Shown: piece by piece, positions 1,191 through 47,953 of the stretch
Position numbering within the stretch: position 1 is the stretch's first letter
Layout of the letters: every line of letters begins with the position of its first letter
Origin: Vicugna vicugna
Lineage: Eukaryota
Assembly: GCA_013265495.1 (NCBI GenBank)
Contig: MU058221.1
Span: 5,130,066-5,194,065, forward strand
Direction of reading: 5' to 3'
DNA length: 64,000 bases
Notes under the pieces: generated by a model
The model's input: the letters and a program-made list of their open reading frames with translations, nothing else
Database searches by the model: none
Told to the model about the DNA's origin: nothing
Position numbers and translations under genes: made by a program

Positions 1191-1280
1191 GGAGAGAGTG
1201 TAGCTCAGTGGTAGAGCGCATGCTTAGTGTGCATGAGGTCCTGTGTTCAATCCCCAGTACCTACCTCCATCAAAAAAAAA
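1191..1280 (+). mobile_element. tRNA-Ala-derived SINE (Vic-1-like)
   Basis: A box tagctcagtggtagagc, B-box-like gttcaatccc, A tail. Confidence 0.85.
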
Positions 1281-3553: not shown

Positions 3554-3632
3554 GGGGGGAGGGTATAGCTCAAGTGGTAGAGCGCATGCTCAACATGCAC
3601 GAGGTCCTGGGTTCAATCCCCAGTACCTCTAG

Positions 3633-11509: not shown

Positions 11510-11621
11510 GGGAGTAATTAAGGTTTGTTTATTTATTTATTTTTAGAGGAGGTGCTGGGGATTGAACCCAGGACCTTGTGTATGTTGAGCATGTGCTCTA
11601 CCATTTGAGCTATACCCTCCC
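11510..11621 (-). mobile_element. tRNA-Ala-derived SINE (Vic-1-like)
   Basis: Reverse complement of the same SINE body and taaa/cctaattac tail. Confidence 0.88.
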
Positions 11622-12282
11622 TTCTTTTTATTTTAAGAGCAACTTTTTGTTGTGTTTTAATTCCTTCTGAGTTAAATACCCCCCCAAAACAGCAAACAAA
11701 AACCACATAATGATCTATCATAGGAATCAAGAAAGCTCCAATAGAGGCCAAACTAACGGGATGGAGGGGTGGGGGGGCTAGAGACGGAGCAACCTGTTAC
11801 TTAGCTATTTCCTTCTACCCTCCCCTCCTCCACGTGTCCGGTTTTCCCCAAAACTCATTACACAAATGAATTAATTCATTTCCCTATTAATCAGGTTGAG
11901 CAGCTTTTCATACGTTTCCATCTCCTCTTTGATGAGTTACTCACTTACACTCTTTTTCCTAGTTTTCATGGGCTCTTGGTCATTTTCCTGTCAATTGGTA
12001 CTAACCCTTTGTCCATCATATGTGTTGTAAACGTTTTCTTCTATTGTTTGTCTGAGGTTTTTACGTGTACGGTAACTTTTCATTTCTCTGTAGTTAAGCC
12101 TATCGATCTTTTCCTTTGTGGCTTCTAGATATTCTCAGACCCCACTGGTATGCATGTGAGTTTTGACAGCCATTTGGAAAGTAATCTGGCTGTTACTACT
12201 AACATAAAATATGTACATATCCTTTGTCTCAGCAAGCCCACTTTGAGACATCTTTTCCACAAAAATCAAAACATCACTTCAT

Positions 12283-12442
12283 GGGGGGAGGGTAGAACTC
12301 AAGTGGTAGAGCGCATGCTTAGCATGCACAAGGTCCTGGGTTCCATTCCCAGTACCTCCTCTAAAAATAAATCAATAAACCTAACTACCTCCTCCCCCCT
12401 ACACACACACACACATACAAAAAGCAAAAAAACAAAACAAAA
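12283..12442 (+). mobile_element. tRNA-Ala-derived SINE (Vic-1-like) inserted in an old L1 fragment
   Basis: SINE body with a CA-repeat tail; TSD catcacttca on both sides. Confidence 0.9.
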
Positions 12443-15400: not shown

Positions 15401-16249
15401 AACAGCCCAAATGCTTCTATTGTTTCCCCATCGGAAGCCCACCTCGCCTCCCGCCTGCCGCGGAGAGGACGGTTCTTCTGAATTTACCTAATTCTCTGAG
15501 CAGTTAGCAGCTGGAAGCGGCTGCAAGGGGGTCTCATTCATTATCCCGGGATAATGAGCATCCTATCCTAGGAGCAGGCCGTTTCCTAATAACATCATTA
15601 AACCCGGTTTTCCTGAGCTTGGGGCCACCGCGGGTGTAACCCCCCCTCCCTCTCCGCGCCCTCCAACCAGCCCTGCACCAAGCTCGCTGCCCCAGTGCGG
15701 GAGGAAGGGTCACCCGCCCACCTGCCACTTGTGGGCTCCTTCCAAACCCGGACTCCATGAAATCGGTCCCCGACTCACTAAATCCTCGTTGGCCCAAGTT
15801 TGGTTTTGTTCTTTTCCCTTCTTTCCCTATAATTCCTTTAATGGGCAAAACTGGCACAAACGCAGGTGGACATTTTAAACTGAAAGCTGCAGGAAACGGA
15901 CCATTGCACCTTGTCAAGAGATCTGCTGAATCACATGGGCGACACAGGCACCCCCCCTCCAAAATATTCAACAGTCTTTTGAACGGAAGATTGAAATGAC
16001 ACTCTAAACATCGACTTTTTTTCCCCCTCTAAGATAGGAAAGTCAGCAAATGCAAAGTCAGCCTTGTGAGCAGCCTCCTTTTTCGGGCAGAGAAAAGGCT
16101 GGAGTTGGAGGGGCCGAGTGCGGCCTCCACCGTAGGGTCAGCAAAGGGTAAGGGCCTCTCTCGGAAACTTTAGCGCTGGGGGAGAGAAGGGGACGGCAAT
16201 CGTTGATATCGATGACAGAACGCTCTTTATTCTGCTTCTCGGCCATTTT

Positions 16250-17750
16250 CCCCACAGAACCATTAACCAAGAAATTGCTAGGAACTAGACGGCCCCCGCA
16301 GGGTCGCCCGCCGCCAGCAGCGCGCAGGGCGGGGATGCACAAGGCCGTGCGAAGGAACGTCCGCTGACCAGCCAAGATGGCCACTTTCACGTGGCTATGG
16401 GCCACTGGCTCCCTGTCACTCGGGCACCCAAAGGCGGGGCGGCAGGAAAGACCCTCGGGCTGAGCCGGAGGACAAAACCCATGCCGATTCCCGCCGCCGC
16501 CGCTGGGGGACGCGACCTCGCGGCCAGAGAACCCGGCCAACGGTCGGAAGGGAGGTACCATGTCACAGCACAGGGGAGCAGTCCCACCAAGTCCTTGTCG
16601 CTTTTCCTCCCTCATCGAACATGGAAGCGTAGAACGACTCTATATATTCGCATTTACCCTTACGCCTTGTTAGAAGTGCTTAATACGGCGAAATATTCGC
16701 AGAAGGGGCGCGTTACCTCCGCTCCCCACCTGCCTGGCAGAGTGGTTCGGCCCGAGCTCCCCTCGGCGCACCGCCCCTTCCCCACCCCCCCGCCCCCGCG
16801 CGAGTGGCGCATTGGCGCGCGGCGCCGAGGGGCGGGGCCCGGGCCGGGCGCGCGCGGGCGCCGTATATAAATACTGGGCCGCGCCACCCGCCGCCTCGTT
16901 CGCTGCGCGCCGCCCGCCCGAGCTGAGTAGAACGTTGCGTTCTGCTCGCGCACTTCGCAGTCGTCTTCTTGCCGCTCCCTTTTCTCCTCGCCGCTACTCT
17001 CACTCACCGCCACCGCCATGAACGGGCAGCTCAACGGCTTCCACGACGCGTTCATTGAGGAGGGCACGTTCCTCTTCACCTCCGAGTCTGTGGGGGAAGG
17101 CCACCCAGGTGAGGTGACGGGGCCTGGAGCGAAGCGAGGGGCGGGGCGCCGGGCCTGGCCAGCCAGCCGGAGCCGCCGGCCGCGGTGCGCACGCCGGTGA
17201 CCCTCCCCCGGCGGGCGGTGCGGAGAGCGCGGCCGCGCGCCCTCCTCGTGGCGCCGCCGGTGCCGAGCGCGTGGCCGCCGCTCCCCTCACTCCTCCCCTC
17301 CCATCCGGCCGCGCGCCCCGGCATGCGGAAGATTCCAGAAAACGAGAAGGGCGGGGGCCGCGGCCGCTCGTGCTCTACCCGGGGAGGGCACGGTTTCCGC
17401 CTCCCCGCCCTGCGGGCCGAGCCGCCTCGAGTGGGCGGCCGGCCCCGCGTGCTCGCGGCCGGCCCGCGGGAGCGCGCGCCCCGCATTGCAGCCGCAACCA
17501 CGTGTTTGCCGCATGTGGCCTCGGCAAGGGAGCCGGCGGGTGACCCGGGTTTGCGGAGCGGGGCCCGGGCCTCAGAGGGGGTCCCCTCTTCCCGTTAATT
17601 CCCTCCCTCTGGTCCACGCTCCACTGAAGACTATGACGTGCCCTTAGGCGGTTATGGCCTTGCGTCAAGGTGACAGCCTCCAACTAAATATAGCGCGTGT
17701 CGGAGGAGGCCTGCCTTATTTGGACCGCGCGTGAGGAGGACAGGAAGCGT
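16250..17750. promoter_or_regulatory. MAT2A CpG island/promoter with TATA box, GC box and inverted CCAAT
   Basis: Dense CpG. TATATAAA 16864-16871, GGGGCGGGGC 16829-16838 and ATTGG 16811-16815 lie ~150-200 bp upstream of the ATG. Confidence 0.9.
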
Positions 17751-20700
17751 GAATTAAGTGTAAGCTGCCATTGCGTTGGGTCTCCTTTTAAAGTCTGCGG
17801 GGCTGACCCTCAGGCAAGGTTTTACTTCATTTGTCCTCCGGGCTTTGTCCACTCGTCCGCCATTATGGAGATCAGTTTACACGCGCACGAGTGAAGCTGT
17901 TGGAAGGAGCTTTCGATCTCAGCCTGGAAAACTCACCTAGTAAAAGATCGTTATTTTACTGGAGTGTTCCAGCCCTTTCTTAGGATGACCACGATGACAG
18001 ATACCTAGTCTGATGGGTTAAGGATCCATTTCTCTAGTAAGTCTGCTGTGCCTATGATGAAATCCCACGAGCAACCTCGTGGTATAGGAGAGGACAAACC
18101 CCAAGATCTGCTGAGTGAAGGTCAAGTGTGGTGTGGTGACTTTACCCCTCAGTACTGAGAGCTTATCATATGGATTAGACCCGCCTTCTGTTAATTTCAT
18201 TTAAGTCCCAGCGTTTGCGTTAGATTAAGTCTTTGGCCTCTGACTTGACTGTAGCACACATTTCGCTTTAATTTTTTTGGATGGTTATAGAAAATTTAGG
18301 AAAGTGATGTTTGGGAGTTTATTACTGTTCCCGCTCCTAATTTTTAATAGAAGGCAATGCAGTGGGGGGAAGATCATCAAGGATTCAGCCTGCGTTTGGG
18401 GATTTCCCATACTGTTCAGTTCTTGTTCCTTGTCTCCTCTTAAGATCAAATGATTTGTTCACAAAGTGTCCTTGCTTTCATCTAACTCTTTAGGAGGCAC
18501 TTCTGTAAATGACAGTATTTCTCATTGCCCTAATTGGTGCTTCTTAGGGTCAGAGAGAAATTGATAAGATAAACAGTTCACCTCTCTGGCTGGTTAGATT
18601 TATAATACAAACTTTAAACTTTGGGGATAAAATGTAATTACAGTTGTTCTTGAAAAATAATACTCCTTGCTTTGCTTTTGGATGGAAGATAAACCTACCT
18701 TAAAGGTGGAACTGAAGTCCTTGTAAGATTCAAAGTGCATTATATTGCAAAGAGTTTAAATGTATTAAACATGCTGAGTGTTTTGCTGGCTTTTCTGGAT
18801 TGGTGATCTTGTGCAGCTATACTAAGACTCAGGTGTAGGTAACATGTAGCACTGTGTCCAGCATTTGTTCTTCAGGCAAATAGTTTCTGTAAAAGCAGTG
18901 CTTTCCGCAGACAGCAGGTAGAAGAATGCCACTGAAAATGAACACTTGAACGGGTTAAATTGGTAAACTTTACGTTCTGTAAGTTCTGCCGCAGTTTTTA
19001 AAAGAAAGCTCTCACAAAGATCTTTACAGCTGTAGTTAAAAGGAAGGAGCATGACACGCTAACAGCAAGTTAAAGAAATTGAGTAAGGAATTTTTTTTCC
19101 AGATAAGATTTGTGACCAGATCAGTGATGCTGTCCTTGATGCCCACCTTCAGCAGGACCCTGATGCCAAAGTGGCTTGTGGTAGGTTCAGAACACTGCTT
19201 TCTCAGCTGATGAAAAAGTAACGTGAAAATGACTTTGTAAAAGGGATGTTGGAGTGTGAACTTCTCTTTTATAGAAACTGTTGCTAAAACTGGAATGATC
19301 CTTCTTGCTGGAGAAATCACATCCAGAGCTGCTGTTGACTACCAGAAAGTGGTTCGTGAAACCATTAAACACATTGGCTATGATGATTCTTCCAAAGGTG
19401 TGTTTTAATGAGTTGGCTTTTCTAATCTAATTTTTTCAGACCTTTTCTTCAGTCTTCTCTAGCTCTATTTTCTAGAATGTTCCCAGGAATCTTTAATGCC
19501 ACTTGTATACTTACTGTCTTTTTGTTCCAGTGCTGTTCTGGTGTCCAAAAGTACTAAATTTTAGGTATATGATTTCTTCAGCAGTATTTACAATTGTAGA
19601 TAATTGTTGTAAATACTAAGTATTGCTATAGCCTCCTTCCTTTTCTTTTTTTTCTTTTTAAACAAGACATTGCTTTGTTTATAGGGTTTGACTACAAGAC
19701 TTGTAATGTGCTAGTAGCTTTGGAGCAGCAGTCACCAGATATTGCTCAAGGTGTTCATCTTGACCGGAATGAGGAAGACATTGGTGCAGGAGACCAGGTA
19801 TCTTGGTAGACATTTCTTTGCATTACTTCTAACATTAAATTCTGAAGCATGGATTTATCACATTGGTGACTTTTCTTTTTCTAGGGTTTGATGTTTGGGT
19901 ATGCCACTGATGAAACTGAGGAATGTATGCCTTTAACCATTGTCTTAGCACACAAGCTCAATGCCAAATTGGCTGAGCTGCGCCGAAATGGCACTTTGCC
20001 TTGGTTACGCCCGGATTCTAAAACTCAAGTGAGTGGAAATCATCATAAAATTAGATGACACACGTTGAGTTGGCACAGAACATCAGTAAAGTTGTTTGAT
20101 TAAAGTTAAAGAATAGCATTTGTTTTGTTTGGTAGACTGATGGTCTTGATGGTCTGATCTGTTTTGCTTTCAAGGTGACTGTGCAGTATATGCAGGATCG
20201 AGGTGCTGTGCTTCCCATCAGAGTCCACACAATTGTTATATCTGTTCAGCATGATGAAGAAGTTTGTCTTGATGAGATGAGGGATGCCCTAAAGGAGAAA
20301 GTCATCAAAGCTGTGGTACCTGCAAAATACCTTGATGAGGATACAATCTATCATCTACAGCCAAGTGGCAGATTTGTTATTGGTGGGCCTCAGGTAAGGC
20401 CTTACAGTGTCAATTCAGCTTGCTTTTTTTGATCTTCTGTCATGGTTACTTGCAAAAATTTGGCTACTTTCACCTTTTTTCTAGGTTGTTTTTGAAGTCT
20501 ACATGTGAATCTTCTGAGGAAATTTCCTGAGTGATACTGAATAAGCATTTAACAAGCCTGATCTAGAACCACTGGAAAGGGTTAGGCGTAAAGTGACTTA
20601 AATCCTGTAATTTCAGGGTGATGCTGGTTTGACTGGCCGGAAAATCATTGTGGACACTTACGGCGGTTGGGGAGCTCATGGAGGAGGTGCCTTTTCAGGA

Positions 20701-21859
20701 AAGGATTATACCAAGGTGGACCGATCAGCTGCTTATGCCGCTCGTTGGGTGGCAAAATCCCTTGTTAAAGGAGGTCTGTGCAGAAGGGTTCTTGTTCAGG
20801 TATATACTCTTTTATACAACTGGGATGATTAAAAAGCATATAAGGGGGGCATTTGGTAAATTATCTATGGTCTTTTTTTATACCAGTGTATTACACTTGT
20901 ACGTGGGTTTTTTGATCACTGACTTTTATGACATTTAAATTCTTTTAGGTCTCTTATGCTATTGGAGTATCTCATCCATTGTCTATCTCCATTTTCCATT
21001 ATGGCACCTCTCAGAAGAGTGAGAGAGAGCTATTAGAGATTGTGAAGAAGAACTTTGACCTCCGCCCTGGGGTCATTGTCAGGTAAAGATGGTAAAGCCT
21101 ATTGCTAGTGAAAAAATACTGAGGGTGTGGGTGTGTATGTCTATGTATTTCGATGTGTCCAAATCTGAGGGTCAAGGTGTGAAAGACGACTCAAGTGGGG
21201 AAATACTTTAATTCCTAGGACGTGCTGATGTCATCTTTTCAATTGCCTTCATTAAAGGCTTAAATTACTAGGAAAAATCTAAAATTACAGTGCTCCACAA
21301 CTTAGACTGACTACCCTAGAAAGTCCTCCACATTTGATACGAGGCTTTGTTCGTGTTACCTAAGGAATGTTTACTTAACAGAAATTAGTACAAATAAATG
21401 GAATGTTCATGGCTGTTATAAAGAAAATAACCATAGTAGGGTGTGGGCATGGGACCTCGGTAAGTATTCCATGATGTTAGATGAGCTTTTGACACTTGGA
21501 ATTTCTCAGAATAATGACAAGTTTTCATATTTGTTGAGCCAGGGACGGAAAAACAAGAACTATAGTTACTAATAAGGACTGTGCAAGGAGTTTGGACACC
21601 AGGGAAGTAACAAACACTTTTGCCACAAACTTCTTTCCTAGCACACCCCAGAGAACTGAACTCATTTGCCAGGAGTCTTGAAAATGAGTCTTGCTGATTG
21701 TTTTGCTTTATTTTAATTGAATGCTACATATTAAGTTACGGACTTGTATATTCCAGGGATCTGGATCTGAAGAAGCCAATTTATCAGAGGACTGCAGCCT
21801 ATGGCCACTTTGGTAGGGACAGCTTCCCATGGGAAGTGCCCAAAAAGCTTAAATATTGA
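17018..21859 (+). CDS. MAT2A: S-adenosylmethionine synthase isoform 2 (methionine adenosyltransferase 2A), 9 coding exons, 395 aa
   Basis: Exons 17018-17108, 19103-19180, 19275-19397, 19685-19797, 19885-20028, 20175-20393, 20617-20799, 20949-21082, 21757-21859. All introns are GT-AG; total 1188 nt. Peptide [32 protein letters not shown]...GAGDQGLMFGYA...GGGAFSGKD...EVPKKLKY*; strong Kozak (gccgccATG-like caccgccATG). Confidence 0.99.
21083..21756 (+). promoter_or_regulatory. MAT2A intron 8, the SAM-regulated detained (retained) intron
   Basis: Last intron of MAT2A with donor AG|GTAAAG and a short, interrupted pyrimidine tract (gttacggacttgtatattccag). Regulated retention of this intron is established for mammalian MAT2A. 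Confidence 0.85.
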
Positions 21860-21868
21860 AAGTGTTAG

Positions 21869-21932
21869 CCTTTTTTCCCCAGACTTGTTGGCGTAGGCTA
21901 CAGAGAAGCCTTCAAGCTCTGAGGGAAAGGGC
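21869..21932 (+). promoter_or_regulatory. MAT2A 3'UTR hairpin 1 (METTL16 site)
   Basis: TACAGAGAA at 21899-21907 within ggcgtaggc-TACAGAGAA-gcc, enclosed by ccttttttccccagacttg...caagctctgagggaaagg. Confidence 0.95.
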
Positions 21933-22670
21933 CCTTCTTCCTAAATTTTCCTGTCCTCTTTCAGCTCCTGATCAGTTGCAGTCACTCTAGTCAATGACAT
22001 GAATTTTAGCTTGTGTGGGGGACTGTAAGTTGGGCTTGCTATTCTGTCCCTAGGTGTTTTGTTCACCATTATAATGAATTTAGTGAGCATAGGTGATCCA
22101 TGTAACTGCCTAGAAACAAACCAACAACACTGTAGTAAATAATGCTTTGAAATTGAACCTTTGTGCCCTATCAACCCAACCTTCTAAAATCCTAATTGCA
22201 TTGAGTTTCCCACCAAATGCTGAAAATGTCCTTGTAATGTGCACGTAAAGTACTTGTAGTTCCATTATAGCCTCTTGTCTGGCAATGCCACAGCCCTGTC
22301 AGCATGAATTTGTAATGTCTTGAGCTCTATTATGAATGTGAAGCCTTCCCTTATCCTCCCTATAACTTGATCCATTTCTAATTATGTAGCTCTTTGTCAG
22401 GGAGCGTTCCCTATCCAATCACTCTTGCATGTAACGCAAGTTCCAATTGGAGCTCTAGCCTGACATAAGAAAAAAAAAAGGCAGTTACCATTAAACCATC
22501 TCCCTGGTGCTTATGCTCTTAATTGCCATCTTTAAACAGCACCAAATCAAAATCTCTCCACTTTTCAGCTGTCTTTTGGAGGACGTACGTAATAAGGTTT
22601 TTATTTAGTAAACCAATCCTATGCATGGTTTCAGCACTAGCCAAACCACCAACTCCTAGCTCTAGAAAAA

Positions 22671-22724
22671 CAGGCACTTGGCACCCTTGTGATGTGATAC
22701 AGAGAAGTCACAGGGCAGTACCTG
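22671..22724 (+). promoter_or_regulatory. MAT2A 3'UTR hairpin 2 (METTL16 site)
   Basis: TACAGAGAA 22698-22706; stem cccttgtga...tcacaggg. Confidence 0.92.
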
Positions 22725-22860
22725 AGGGTCTGTAGGTTGCACACTTTGGTACCAGATAACTTTTTTTTTTCTTTATAAGAAAGACTGAGTACTCCACACT
22801 GCACAATAACTCCTCCCAAGGTTTTAACTTTGTTTTGTTTTCAAAACCAGGTCCAATGAG

Positions 22861-22910
22861 CTTTCTGAACAGCTGGTGTAGCTACAGAGAAACCAGCTTC
22901 CTTCAGAGAG
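22861..22910 (+). promoter_or_regulatory. MAT2A 3'UTR hairpin 3 (METTL16 site)
   Basis: TACAGAGAA 22883-22891; stem ctttctgaa-c-agctggt...accagct-tcc-ttcagagag. Confidence 0.92.
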
Positions 22911-22979
22911 CAGTGCTTTTGGCGGGGAGGAGGAAATCCCTTCATACTTGAACATTTTCTAATCGCTTATTTATTGTAT

Positions 22980-23020
22980 TCTGGGGTATGGCGTAAGTAC
23001 AGAGAAGCCATCACCTCAGA
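22980..23020 (+). promoter_or_regulatory. MAT2A 3'UTR hairpin 4 (METTL16 site)
   Basis: TACAGAGAA 22998-23006; stem tctggggt-atggc...gccat-c-acctcaga. Confidence 0.92.
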
Positions 23021-23088
23021 TGGCAGCTTTTAAAAGATTTTTTTTTTTTTCCTCAACACCATGATTCCTTTAACATGTTTCCAGCATT

Positions 23089-23134
23089 CCCAGGTAGGCC
23101 AAGGTGTCCTACAGAAAAACCTTGGGTTAGACCT
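23089..23134 (+). promoter_or_regulatory. MAT2A 3'UTR hairpin 5 (variant nonamer UACAGAAAA)
   Basis: TACAGAAAA 23110-23118; stem ccaaggt...accttgg. Confidence 0.88.
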
Positions 23135-23188
23135 ACAGGGGGTCTGGCTGGTGTTAACAGAAGGGAGGGCAGAGCTGGTGCGGCTGGC

Positions 23189-23255
23189 CATGGAGAAAGC
23201 TGACTTGGCTGGTGTGGTACAGAGAAGCCAGCTTGTTTACATGCTTATTCCATGA
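23189..23255 (+). promoter_or_regulatory. MAT2A 3'UTR hairpin 6 (METTL16 site)
   Basis: TACAGAGAA 23218-23226; inner stem ggctggt...gccagct, outer catgga...tccatg. Confidence 0.92.
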
Positions 23256-23351
23256 CTGCTTGCCCTAAGCAGAAAGTGCCTTTCAGGATCTATTTTTGGA
23301 GGTTTATTACGTATGTCTGGTTCTCAATTCCAACAGTTTAATGAAGATCTA

Positions 23352-23357
23352 AATAAA
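23352..23357 (+). terminator. MAT2A distal polyadenylation signal AATAAA
   Basis: AATAAA just after hairpin 6, followed by GT/T-rich downstream sequence (tgtgtcc, tgttttggtttg). Confidence 0.8.
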
Positions 23358-26189
23358 ATGCTAGGTTCTACCTTAACCTGTGTCCATTATTATTTTCAAA
23401 TGTTTTGGTTTGAATGAATCAAACACACTTTTTAACCCTGAGTAACTGTAATCCCATCTGTGGTTCAAAGAAATGGCTTCAACCCCTGACTGCCCGCATT
23501 CAGAAGGTTTGTAAATCACATCCCTAACACTGGGAAGAAAGTTCAAGACTGGATCTCAGCCTTTTTTGGCCAATGCAGTGGACAAAATTCATGTCTCATT
23601 GCAGTAGCCACTTCTATGCTGTCAGCAATGTCTTAAATTATCTAAAATTAAGGGCATAAAAACCACTAATGTGAGTTGTGTGATAATGTTCATTCTTGAA
23701 AGTTTACATTTTCAAAAAGATGAAAATTGGTGTAAATAGTTTAATACCTAGTTCCAATTCCTTTATATAAACAGGTGTTAAAGACTGCAAGTTGTATTAT
23801 GTTCAGGACACGTTTTTACAGTTCAGCAGTGGTGAGGGACCAGTTTCCAATATATCTTTATAAAATCTAAAATAAATGAACTAAAGTGAAATTTAAACAT
23901 AAAGCCACAGTTAAGAGGCTGTAAGTTCTTAAAGGGCTTATTCTAAATCTGTGGCAGTTTATGTAGAAAGTTCATCAGCTATAAAGCTTGGACCACCCTT
24001 GAGCCTAGGAGCCTCTTGGCACATGTTCATATCAGCATGTATGATGAAGTCAAGTGGATAAACTTCAAATGTGAGGAACAAAGAATGCTTGATTACACCT
24101 GTCTGCCTGGAGGCTCAAAAGTTTAGAAACGTTGGAAGGGAAGGCAAAACTAAATCAGGAATATCAATGATTAACTTCTGACTTGCTCTGAAATGAGGAC
24201 TTGAATTCTGCATGACATTGAAAAGCTCCAGCTTAAGTTTCAAAAAGCTTTTAAATGCCAGTGCACTTGTGGCCTGAAGGTAAGTGACCATGTTGGCTAA
24301 ATGAGGGAGATGAGAATGAGCAAGTGCCTGTGGGCTGGAGTAGCACCAGAGCAGTTCTCAGTTCAGTGTTTGCTAGGTTGATCCAGCCCTCAGTGACGGG
24401 TGCCTTGGCTTGTGCCCTAGCCTCTCCTGAGTGGCAGGGGCAGTACGGGGGTGGGAAACGACACTGGATTAACCACCCCAAGAACAGCAGAAGCAAAGGC
24501 ATGAGGCGGCAGGGGTTGGAGGCGATCACAGCAGAAAATCAAAAAGCATGAGTGTGTTAAGGGAGCATAATTATGTTTAGGTTGAAAGATAACATTTGTC
24601 CTTGCTTTTCAATAAAGCTCCAAGATGACGAAAGATCCGAATGCTGGGGGCAGGATGCAAAAGCCGCCTGGCTAAAAGGGCACTGATACCAGGGCCTGAG
24701 TACTGAAATCGGAATAACCCAGGTTTACTCCACTGAACAGCTTTTCTTAGCACTGAGATGAGCATCCGACCCCAACTCCTTCACTGACCGAGTGTCAGGC
24801 GGCGCACTAACAGGGAAGCAGCATCTTGGCCTATAGTAAACGGAAACCAGGAGTCCCCTCTCAAAGAGAAAAGTTACCTTTATTACCAAGTAAAAAAAAG
24901 GGCGGGAGGGTGTAAGGGGAACAAGGTAACTGACCCTAGTGGCAAAGGACATAGTGCTAAGGCTCACTGTGTGTCACTGAGATCTGCAAAGGGACTGAGA
25001 AGCAGTTCCCACACACGGTTAGCAAGATGCCTCCTGGAGCACAGCAGCCGCTGACCCACAAGAGGCCTTGTATGAATCAGAGGGACTTACTGCCAGGCCC
25101 CACCTGGCCTCAGGGAGGTGTCCTCATTCAGTCCCAAGCTACACAACTGCACAGCAGCCCCGCTCTGCTCTGTCTACCCCTAATGGCTCCAGTATAAAGA
25201 CTGGAAGAACACAGAGGCAGTAGAGATTAAATCAATAGATCCAAGAAGTAAGAGGTAGAACTGATGGGACTTGAAATTCTAAGAAATGTGAGAAAAAGGG
25301 AAGAAAGAAGGCTGATGGATGAGTCAGCTGGCTTAGTGGGGGGAAAAAAAAAAAAGTTGCCATCCGGCTAATACAGGAGAAGCAGGTCTGAGTTAGGAAT
25401 GAATGCCAGTTCTGTTTAGGACAGTGAAAGCCCCGAGGGACATCCAGGTGGAGCTAGATAGATGCACAGGCCCAGGACACAGGAAGGGAGCCTGGGCAGG
25501 AGCATCACTGGAAACCATGGAGTGGACATAACCATCCCAAGTGTGTACAGGGAACAGGCAGCAGCCTAGGAGAGAACTCAGATGGGGGGAAAGGGGGCAT
25601 GGGAAGAGAAGCCTGAAAACAGTCCTTTATCAAAAGTATAGGGACTGCCAGTCTCTGCCTCAGGGCCGTGAGGTCACAGAGCAGGAGCCTCGGGGTTTTT
25701 TTTGTTTTTTTTTTTTAATTATTCTATGTATTCTTACTTCCTAGCTCCAGTGCCAGGCCTTTGAATTTTCGCAGAATTGAGGATCTTCCTGAATCATATC
25801 CAAACCTTGTACATCCAAACCTAGAAAGTGGCTGTAAACATTCCCTAATCTCTCACAAAAAGTTTGGTTACATCTTTACACCACCTGCTGACTAAAGGCT
25901 AGACTAATACTAAACACTAAGCTTATTTTTAGAGCAATACTACTACCAACCATCTACATTTCCGTTTACTTTAACTCTGTGCTAAATACTCTCATAACTG
26001 CTAATGAAAACTTAGTGGCTGCATAGATAGCAGGAACAGAGAAGGAACCAGAATTGCAGTGAAGAGAAAATTACTGCACACACACTTAAAGCCTGCGTAC
26101 CACCCTAATACTTACAATTAAGTAGACAAGCTTTAAGCTACATCATTTCAGAATTATCGTCAGTGATTCTAAAAATTACAGGAGGCAGT

Positions 26190-26410
26190 GTGCAGGACCT
26201 TAAGTCAAACAGACTTGAGATTCAAACCATCAGTCCATCCCTTATGAGGTATATGTCTTTGAGCAAATTATGTTACATCTCAGCCTCAGTTTCCCCAACT
26301 GTAAAACAGGGCTAATGGCCATCAAGGACCAAATGTAATGACACAAGCACAGTGCTTCACACAGGGCCTACCTAGCAAACGGCAAGCACTCGAGAACAGC
26401 CAGCTATTAT
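26190..26410 (+). mobile_element. MIR SINE in the GGCX 3' region
   Basis: ctttgagcaaatta...cctcagtttccccaactgtaaaacaggg. Confidence 0.7.
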
Positions 26411-26726
26411 TTTCATCACATACATTAAATCTGTTTCCCCACGGAGCCAGTCATGTTACCTGATTCTTATCCCCTTTAGCCTAGAAAGATATTCTCACAT
26501 TGTTTCTTAACCCCCTTCCCAAGCCCCTCAATCTTGGATTCATAAATCTTATCTTTGCTTTACTTCCTTGGTTCCTCTAATCTATCATCTCTGAATTTAA
26601 CAGAGCTATGGATAGGAGAAAAATGTTTTAAAAAAGTCTTAAGTGATTTTTTTTAAAATGTCCACTGCATAGATAATGGTCCTGTGACTGGCTGCTCCCA
26701 TGTCTGTTCCCAGTGTCCGGCCTCCC

Positions 26727-36274
<9,548 letters not shown>

Positions 36275-44794: not shown

Positions 44795-47953
<3,159 letters not shown>

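Follow-up and report, generated by a model that had tools for sequence, protein, structure and literature searches.

Gene content of the window

The window, a 64-kb stretch of DNA, carries MAT2A on its plus strand, with a coding region (17018-21859) of 1188 nt that encodes 395 aa and is distributed over nine exons. The coding parts of exons 1 to 3 were located at 17018-17108, 19103-19180 and 19275-19397, those of exons 4 to 6 at 19685-19797, 19885-20028 and 20175-20393, and those of exons 7 to 9 at 20617-20799, 20949-21082 and 21757-21859. All eight introns have GT-AG borders, the open reading frame is intact with a single stop, and the promoter is GC-rich. When the translations of exons 1, 6 and 9 were compared with PDB sequences, MAT2A outscored MAT1A for each of these three exons. 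Specifically, exon 6 scored 147.5 bits against MAT2A and 126 bits against MAT1A, while 29 of 30 residues of exon 1 and all 33 residues of exon 9 were identical to PDB MAT2A. Residue 10 (17045-17047) is Asp where PDB MAT2A has Glu, a conservative difference in the N-terminal tail.

Downstream of MAT2A, gamma-carboxylase domains (PF05090 or PF22777) were matched by nine of the 58 open reading frames scanned (of 223 listed), all within 28419-34607 (-). Judged by these domains, the minus-strand gene is GGCX (vitamin K-dependent gamma-carboxylase), which lies tail to tail with MAT2A. This convergent order is also the human arrangement.

Rfam additionally returned five tRNA matches, at 1194-1265 (+), 3559-3631 (+), 11547-11619 (-), 12288-12360 (+) and 46539-46608 (-), three of which were also called by ARAGORN. 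We rejected these as tRNA genes and assign them instead to a single tRNA-derived SINE, whose copies carry repetitive, AT-rich tails; the family presumably resembles a camelid SINE. The part of PMC8605555 that was available contains no description of this element.

Six hairpins in the MAT2A 3′UTR

The initial annotation had proposed that the region behind the MAT2A stop codon contains the six hairpins (hp1 to hp6) known from MAT2A mRNA, and had suggested the Rfam covariance models MAT2A_A to MAT2A_F as a check. All six models indeed matched over their full length, in the order A to F and on the plus strand, with scores of 70-100 bits against cut-offs of 32-51. The first hairpin, hp1 (MAT2A_A, RF02260), extends over 21868-21932 (97.5 bits, cut-off 40), with its nonamer at 21899-21907 and the target A at 21902. 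It is followed by hp2 (MAT2A_B, RF02261; 22670-22733; 93.7 bits, cut-off 45; nonamer 22698-22706, target A 22701), hp3 (MAT2A_C, RF02262; 22860-22911; 86.0 bits, cut-off 47; nonamer 22883-22891, target A 22886) and hp4 (MAT2A_D, RF02263; 22980-23020; 69.9 bits, cut-off 32; nonamer 22998-23006, target A 23001). The fifth hairpin, hp5 (MAT2A_E, RF02264; 23081-23147; 99.7 bits, cut-off 46), carries the variant nonamer UACAGAAAA at 23110-23118 with its target A at 23113, and hp6 (MAT2A_F, RF02265; 23189-23254; 98.5 bits, cut-off 51) closes the series with a nonamer at 23218-23226 and a target A at 23221. On the exon comparison above, the array is placed in the 3′UTR of MAT2A rather than MAT1A, on the sense strand. 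Together with the intact reading frame, the six nonamers and full-length matches bear out, as far as sequence can tell, the earlier claim that the array is intact in this species.

With the Rfam consensus as reference, rather than the human or a sister-species sequence, hp1, hp3, hp4 and hp5 showed no departures at all. In hp6, one G-C pair is changed to G-U (23195/23248). Departures other than this wobble were confined to hp2, where the linker base at 22696 differs and, at the upper stem's outer end, a C stands opposite a C (22684/22716). Lowering the Rfam threshold to E up to 1 over 15500-27000 added, beyond the six hits, four weak cross-matches on hp3/hp4 and one NEAT1_2 match (22 bits against a cut-off of 60, E 0.49) that was taken as chance.

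The TACAGARAA nonamer occurs seven times in the window when both strands are counted, against a chance expectation of 1.31 +/- 1.14, and seven sites were not reached in any of 100 shuffles. The six plus-strand sites are those of hp1 to hp6 (the one at 23110 being the AAAA variant), at exactly the positions listed in the initial annotation. The frame GRYGT-N(1-4)-TACAGARAA-RYC, which that annotation had described around each of them, likewise matched all six sites on the plus strand, none on the minus strand and none in 200 window shuffles; the proposed linker range was too wide, since the linkers of hp1 to hp6 measure 4, 2, 3, 3, 2 and 2 nt, and thus N2-4. A relaxed motif scan of the sense strand from 16900 to 24000 for a seventh or degenerate hairpin yielded the six sites only.

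The seventh nonamer lies at 12084-12092 on the minus strand, upstream of MAT2A, where it lacks the frame and, at -5.3 kcal/mol for 89 nt, is not part of a stable stem, which is consistent with a chance occurrence. That one unrelated nonamer arises in the window in this way could be taken to mean that the whole array is a chance cluster, a pseudogene or a set of degenerate U6 fragments devoid of any regulatory role. However, besides the lack of framed matches, the 200 window shuffles never gave more than two nonamers per 1400 nt on one strand (a maximum seen in one shuffle), and among 2000 shuffles of the 3′UTR alone the maximum was a single nonamer. Moreover, this MAT2A copy has introns, an intact reading frame and a GC-rich promoter, and no match to the U6 model was reported by Rfam, either in the window or in 15500-27000 at E up to 1. 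Given the shuffle statistics and the intact gene, we consider such an origin excluded for all practical purposes.

Predicted structure of the hairpins

In folding predictions all six sites formed hairpins, in agreement with the earlier proposal that each nonamer sits in the loop of its own stem. Folded in isolation, hp1 to hp6 reached z-scores of -2.7, -1.3, -4.2, -4.5, -2.5 and -2.7. For five of the six, no more than 5 of 300 shuffles were equally or more stable; the exception, hp2, was matched or exceeded by 26 of 300 and is thereby not significant. In the isolated minimum-energy fold of hp3, three of the nine nonamer bases were paired. With exon 9 as the folding context and a base-pair span of up to 150, pairing of the RYC element with the upstream GRY was predicted at a probability of 0.91-1.0 and an unpaired target A at 0.97-1.0, in each case for all six hairpins. 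Each hairpin is thus predicted to present GU, linker and UACAGARAA in a stem-closed loop, with an invariant C three bases past the nonamer. These are the loop features defined for METTL16 substrates (PMC7927073 and PMC10578476, which, like the other papers cited here, are drawn on for the parts of their text that were available).

The stems had also been described as differing in sequence, and the flanks of any two hairpins indeed share only 2-9 identical positions of 16, which argues against a recent tandem duplication.

Its two differences from the Rfam consensus and its fold, the weakest of the six, raise the possibility that hp2 has been tuned, in that lineage-specific changes (22696 and the C-C opposition) in an otherwise known element alter METTL16 turnover and shift the SAM set-point. 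Linker composition may modulate METTL16 activity (available text of PMC7927073), and if the changes do act in this manner, hp2 would be a natural variant with which to test the idea of hp2 to hp6 as a "dimmer switch". However, hp2 still scores 93.7 bits with a C-C column that the model does not flag as negative, its predicted pairing in context averages 0.90 with the target A 0.97 unpaired, and its differences were scored against a consensus and not against human or a sister species. Moreover, hp2 to hp6 are described as redundant, the response being lost only when four or more of these five hairpins are mutated (PMC10578476, in part), and activity showed no significant difference after stems were exchanged between hp1 and hp6 (PMC7927073, in part). 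Because of this redundancy and the small effect of stem swaps, we regard tuning through hp2 as improbable. For a direct comparison, the PMC9850920 supplement provided no human hp2 sequence, and a search of published texts for short pieces of hp2 gave one paper with a single short match.

Layout relative to the human gene

In the orthologous reading, hp1 to hp6 correspond one by one to the human hairpins. In this species hp1 begins 8 nt past the stop codon, the hp1 nonamer is found at exon 9 nt 143, and hp2 begins 810 nt past the stop. In the published human layout, according to the accessible text of PMC10578476, the distance from the stop to hp1 is 8 nt and that from the last 3′ splice site to the hp1 nonamer 141-145 nt, with hp2 to hp6 clustered about 800 nt further downstream. 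For human MAT2A, the available part of PMC8139829 further describes a UGUA that lies 9-12 nt upstream of the final splice acceptor, a UGUU 114 nt away in the interval from stop to hp1, and a UTR with 11 UGUA motifs, the tenth of which lies within hp3. All of these are present here: the UGUA upstream of the splice site, the UGUU (21863-21866, +) in the interval between stop and hp1, and a set of 11 UTR UGUAs whose tenth member (22877) overlaps hp3 as in human.

The G-to-A change that distinguishes the hp5 nonamer is the human state as well, and this G9A variant raises methylation in vitro (PMC7927073, in part). Compared with the human hairpins and RF02260-RF02265, the array therefore retains the order of models, the nonamers including the hp5 variant, the spacing to the stop and last 3′ splice site, the weak polypyrimidine tract (see below), and the UGUA and UGUU motifs. 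It is unlike the Rfam consensus, as opposed to an aligned human sequence, only in the hp2 and hp6 positions given above.

Intron 8 and polyadenylation signals

The last intron, intron 8 (21083-21756, 674 nt, +), is homologous to the intron that is detained in human, and its retention would stop the reading frame at 362 aa. Its 3′ splice site (21743-21756, +) is weak, with a polypyrimidine tract interrupted by purines at -11, -9 and -7. Two of these purines fall inside the UGUA at -12 to -9 (21745-21748), and the third is the A at -7. In human, a three-purine break including an A at -7 makes splicing of this intron inefficient (PMC10578476, in part), and the same broken tract is described in the accessible text of PMC8139829. 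By count the tract is not uniquely weak, as its 8 pyrimidines of 11 tie with introns 3, 6 and 7; its longest pyrimidine run, of 3, is the shortest among the eight introns. The intronic UGUA was first proposed to be a CFIm site (PMC8139829); the same group subsequently doubted this and reads it as a tract-weakening element (PMC10578476; both papers available in part), and we accordingly count it as part of the weak tract.

Of 24 sequencing runs listed, 19 contain the gene stretch and 13 contain at least half of its words. Two of the 19 are recorded as RNA, with shares of 0.52 and 0.48. By our own arithmetic, about 0.43 of the gene stretch is exonic, a fraction that rises to about 0.53 when intron 8 is included, and the shares in the two RNA runs are no evidence of intron 8 retention.

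An AATAAA at 23352-23357 (+), some 100 nt past hp6, is probably the main poly(A) signal. Between hp1 and hp2, an ATTAAA at 22490-22495 (+) is a candidate for a poly(A) site that is proximal and weak, and cleavage near 22490 would retain hp1 and lose hp2 to hp6. A weak proximal site that entails such a loss of hp2 to hp6 has been described for human MAT2A (PMC8139829, in part). Another AATAAA, at 23871-23876 (+) and about 520 nt past the probable main signal, could mark a distal poly(A) site or have arisen by chance.

A probable METTL16-dependent SAM feedback element

We conclude with high confidence that the array is the orthologue of hp1 to hp6 of the vertebrate MAT2A 3′UTR, a SAM feedback element that is read by a protein. 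This reading was reached because the six Rfam models match full length and in order behind an intact MAT2A, because the tract purines and the hp5 variant are kept, and because the target A is predicted to be unpaired in all six hairpins and GGCX is the convergent neighbor. The sequence and predicted structure of the array, the identity of the gene and the spacing come from the present analysis itself. The initial identification of MAT2A hp1 to hp6 as bound and methylated by METTL16 agrees with the Rfam result and with the available text of PMC10578476 and PMC7927073. Its description of the nonamer as U6-type is likewise upheld, human U6 carrying the same nonamer (PMC9850920 supplement, in part).

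By analogy with work in human and mouse, METTL16 binding, methylation, splicing and decay would be connected in this species as follows. The m6A methyltransferase METTL16 would be presented, by each hairpin, with the U6-like UACAGARAA, the 5′ GU and the GRY/RYC stem that closes the loop. At low SAM, METTL16 would stay on hp1 and promote splicing of the weak last intron via its VCR domains and CFIm, while hp2 to hp6 would remain unmethylated, leaving the mRNA stable and thereby yielding more SAM synthetase. At high SAM, methylation of hp1 would release METTL16, intron 8 would be detained and the RNA would undergo nuclear decay, while the spliced mRNA would be shorter-lived once hp2 to hp6 are methylated. 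The division of labor assigned earlier, with hp1 controlling splicing and hp2 to hp6 stability, holds according to PMC10578476 and PMC7927073, except that hp1 may also contribute slightly to decay control (PMC10578476). The authors of the latter paper note that the dwell-time step has not been formally demonstrated and that the decay reader is not fully characterized (all from the parts available).

The same hairpins might alternatively act as a true SAM riboswitch, binding SAM directly and changing their fold without a protein, as tandem conserved hairpins in the mRNA of a SAM-making enzyme do resemble riboswitch logic. However, the SAM riboswitch families had no match in the window, nor in 15500-27000 at E up to 1, and in-line probing by Parker et al. 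in 2011 reportedly gave no SAM-induced change. RNAs of bacterial and fission-yeast SAM synthetases do bind SAM (PMC8208822, PMC9778287), but mammalian MAT2A is described as controlled without direct SAM binding (PMC8208822), and METTL16 knockdown or hairpin mutation abolishes the response (PMC10578476; all available in part). Direct sensing by the hairpins is therefore extremely unlikely. Since there is no SAM riboswitch match and no direct SAM binding (PMC8208822, in part), the earlier label "riboswitch-like" is fair for the logic only, the sensor being a protein.

The protein-read element resembles three known systems to different extents. With bacterial SAM riboswitches (SAM-I and relatives) it shares negative feedback through RNA structure in the SAM-synthetase transcript, but those riboswitches bind SAM directly and reside in 5′ leaders, whereas MAT2A uses a protein sensor and has no such Rfam match. 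With the ACAGAGA box of U6 snRNA (m6A43, deposited by METTL16) it shares the nonamer and the enzyme (PMC9850920 supplement, in part). The U6 nonamer lies in a bulge and serves in pairing with the 5′ splice site, whereas the MAT2A nonamers lie in repeated mRNA hairpin loops and are regulatory. In the 3′ splice-site hairpin of C. elegans sams-3/4/5, methylated by METT-10, SAM-synthetase feedback, a METTL16-family enzyme and a structured nonamer recur. There, a single site lies on the splice acceptor and its methylation blocks splicing, whereas MAT2A has six 3′UTR sites and it is binding, not methylation, that drives splicing (PMC8208822, in part).

The array is real, complete and already known: it is curated as a family in Rfam, and its mechanism has been worked out. 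Its earlier characterization as known biology is accordingly sound, given RF02260-RF02265 and the match to the published human layout. In mammals, post-transcriptional control of the cellular methyl donor runs mainly through the MAT2A hairpins, and one more mammal with an intact array provides an extra row for the existing Rfam alignment. The questions of how METTL16, when bound to hp1, reaches the 3′ splice site and which reader acts on methylated hp2 to hp6 in decay are no more testable here than in human cells. We found no paper treating MAT2A, METTL16 and camel together. In the available part of a bioRxiv preprint (10.64898/2026.10.24.761493), the MAT2A hairpins serve as a known positive control.
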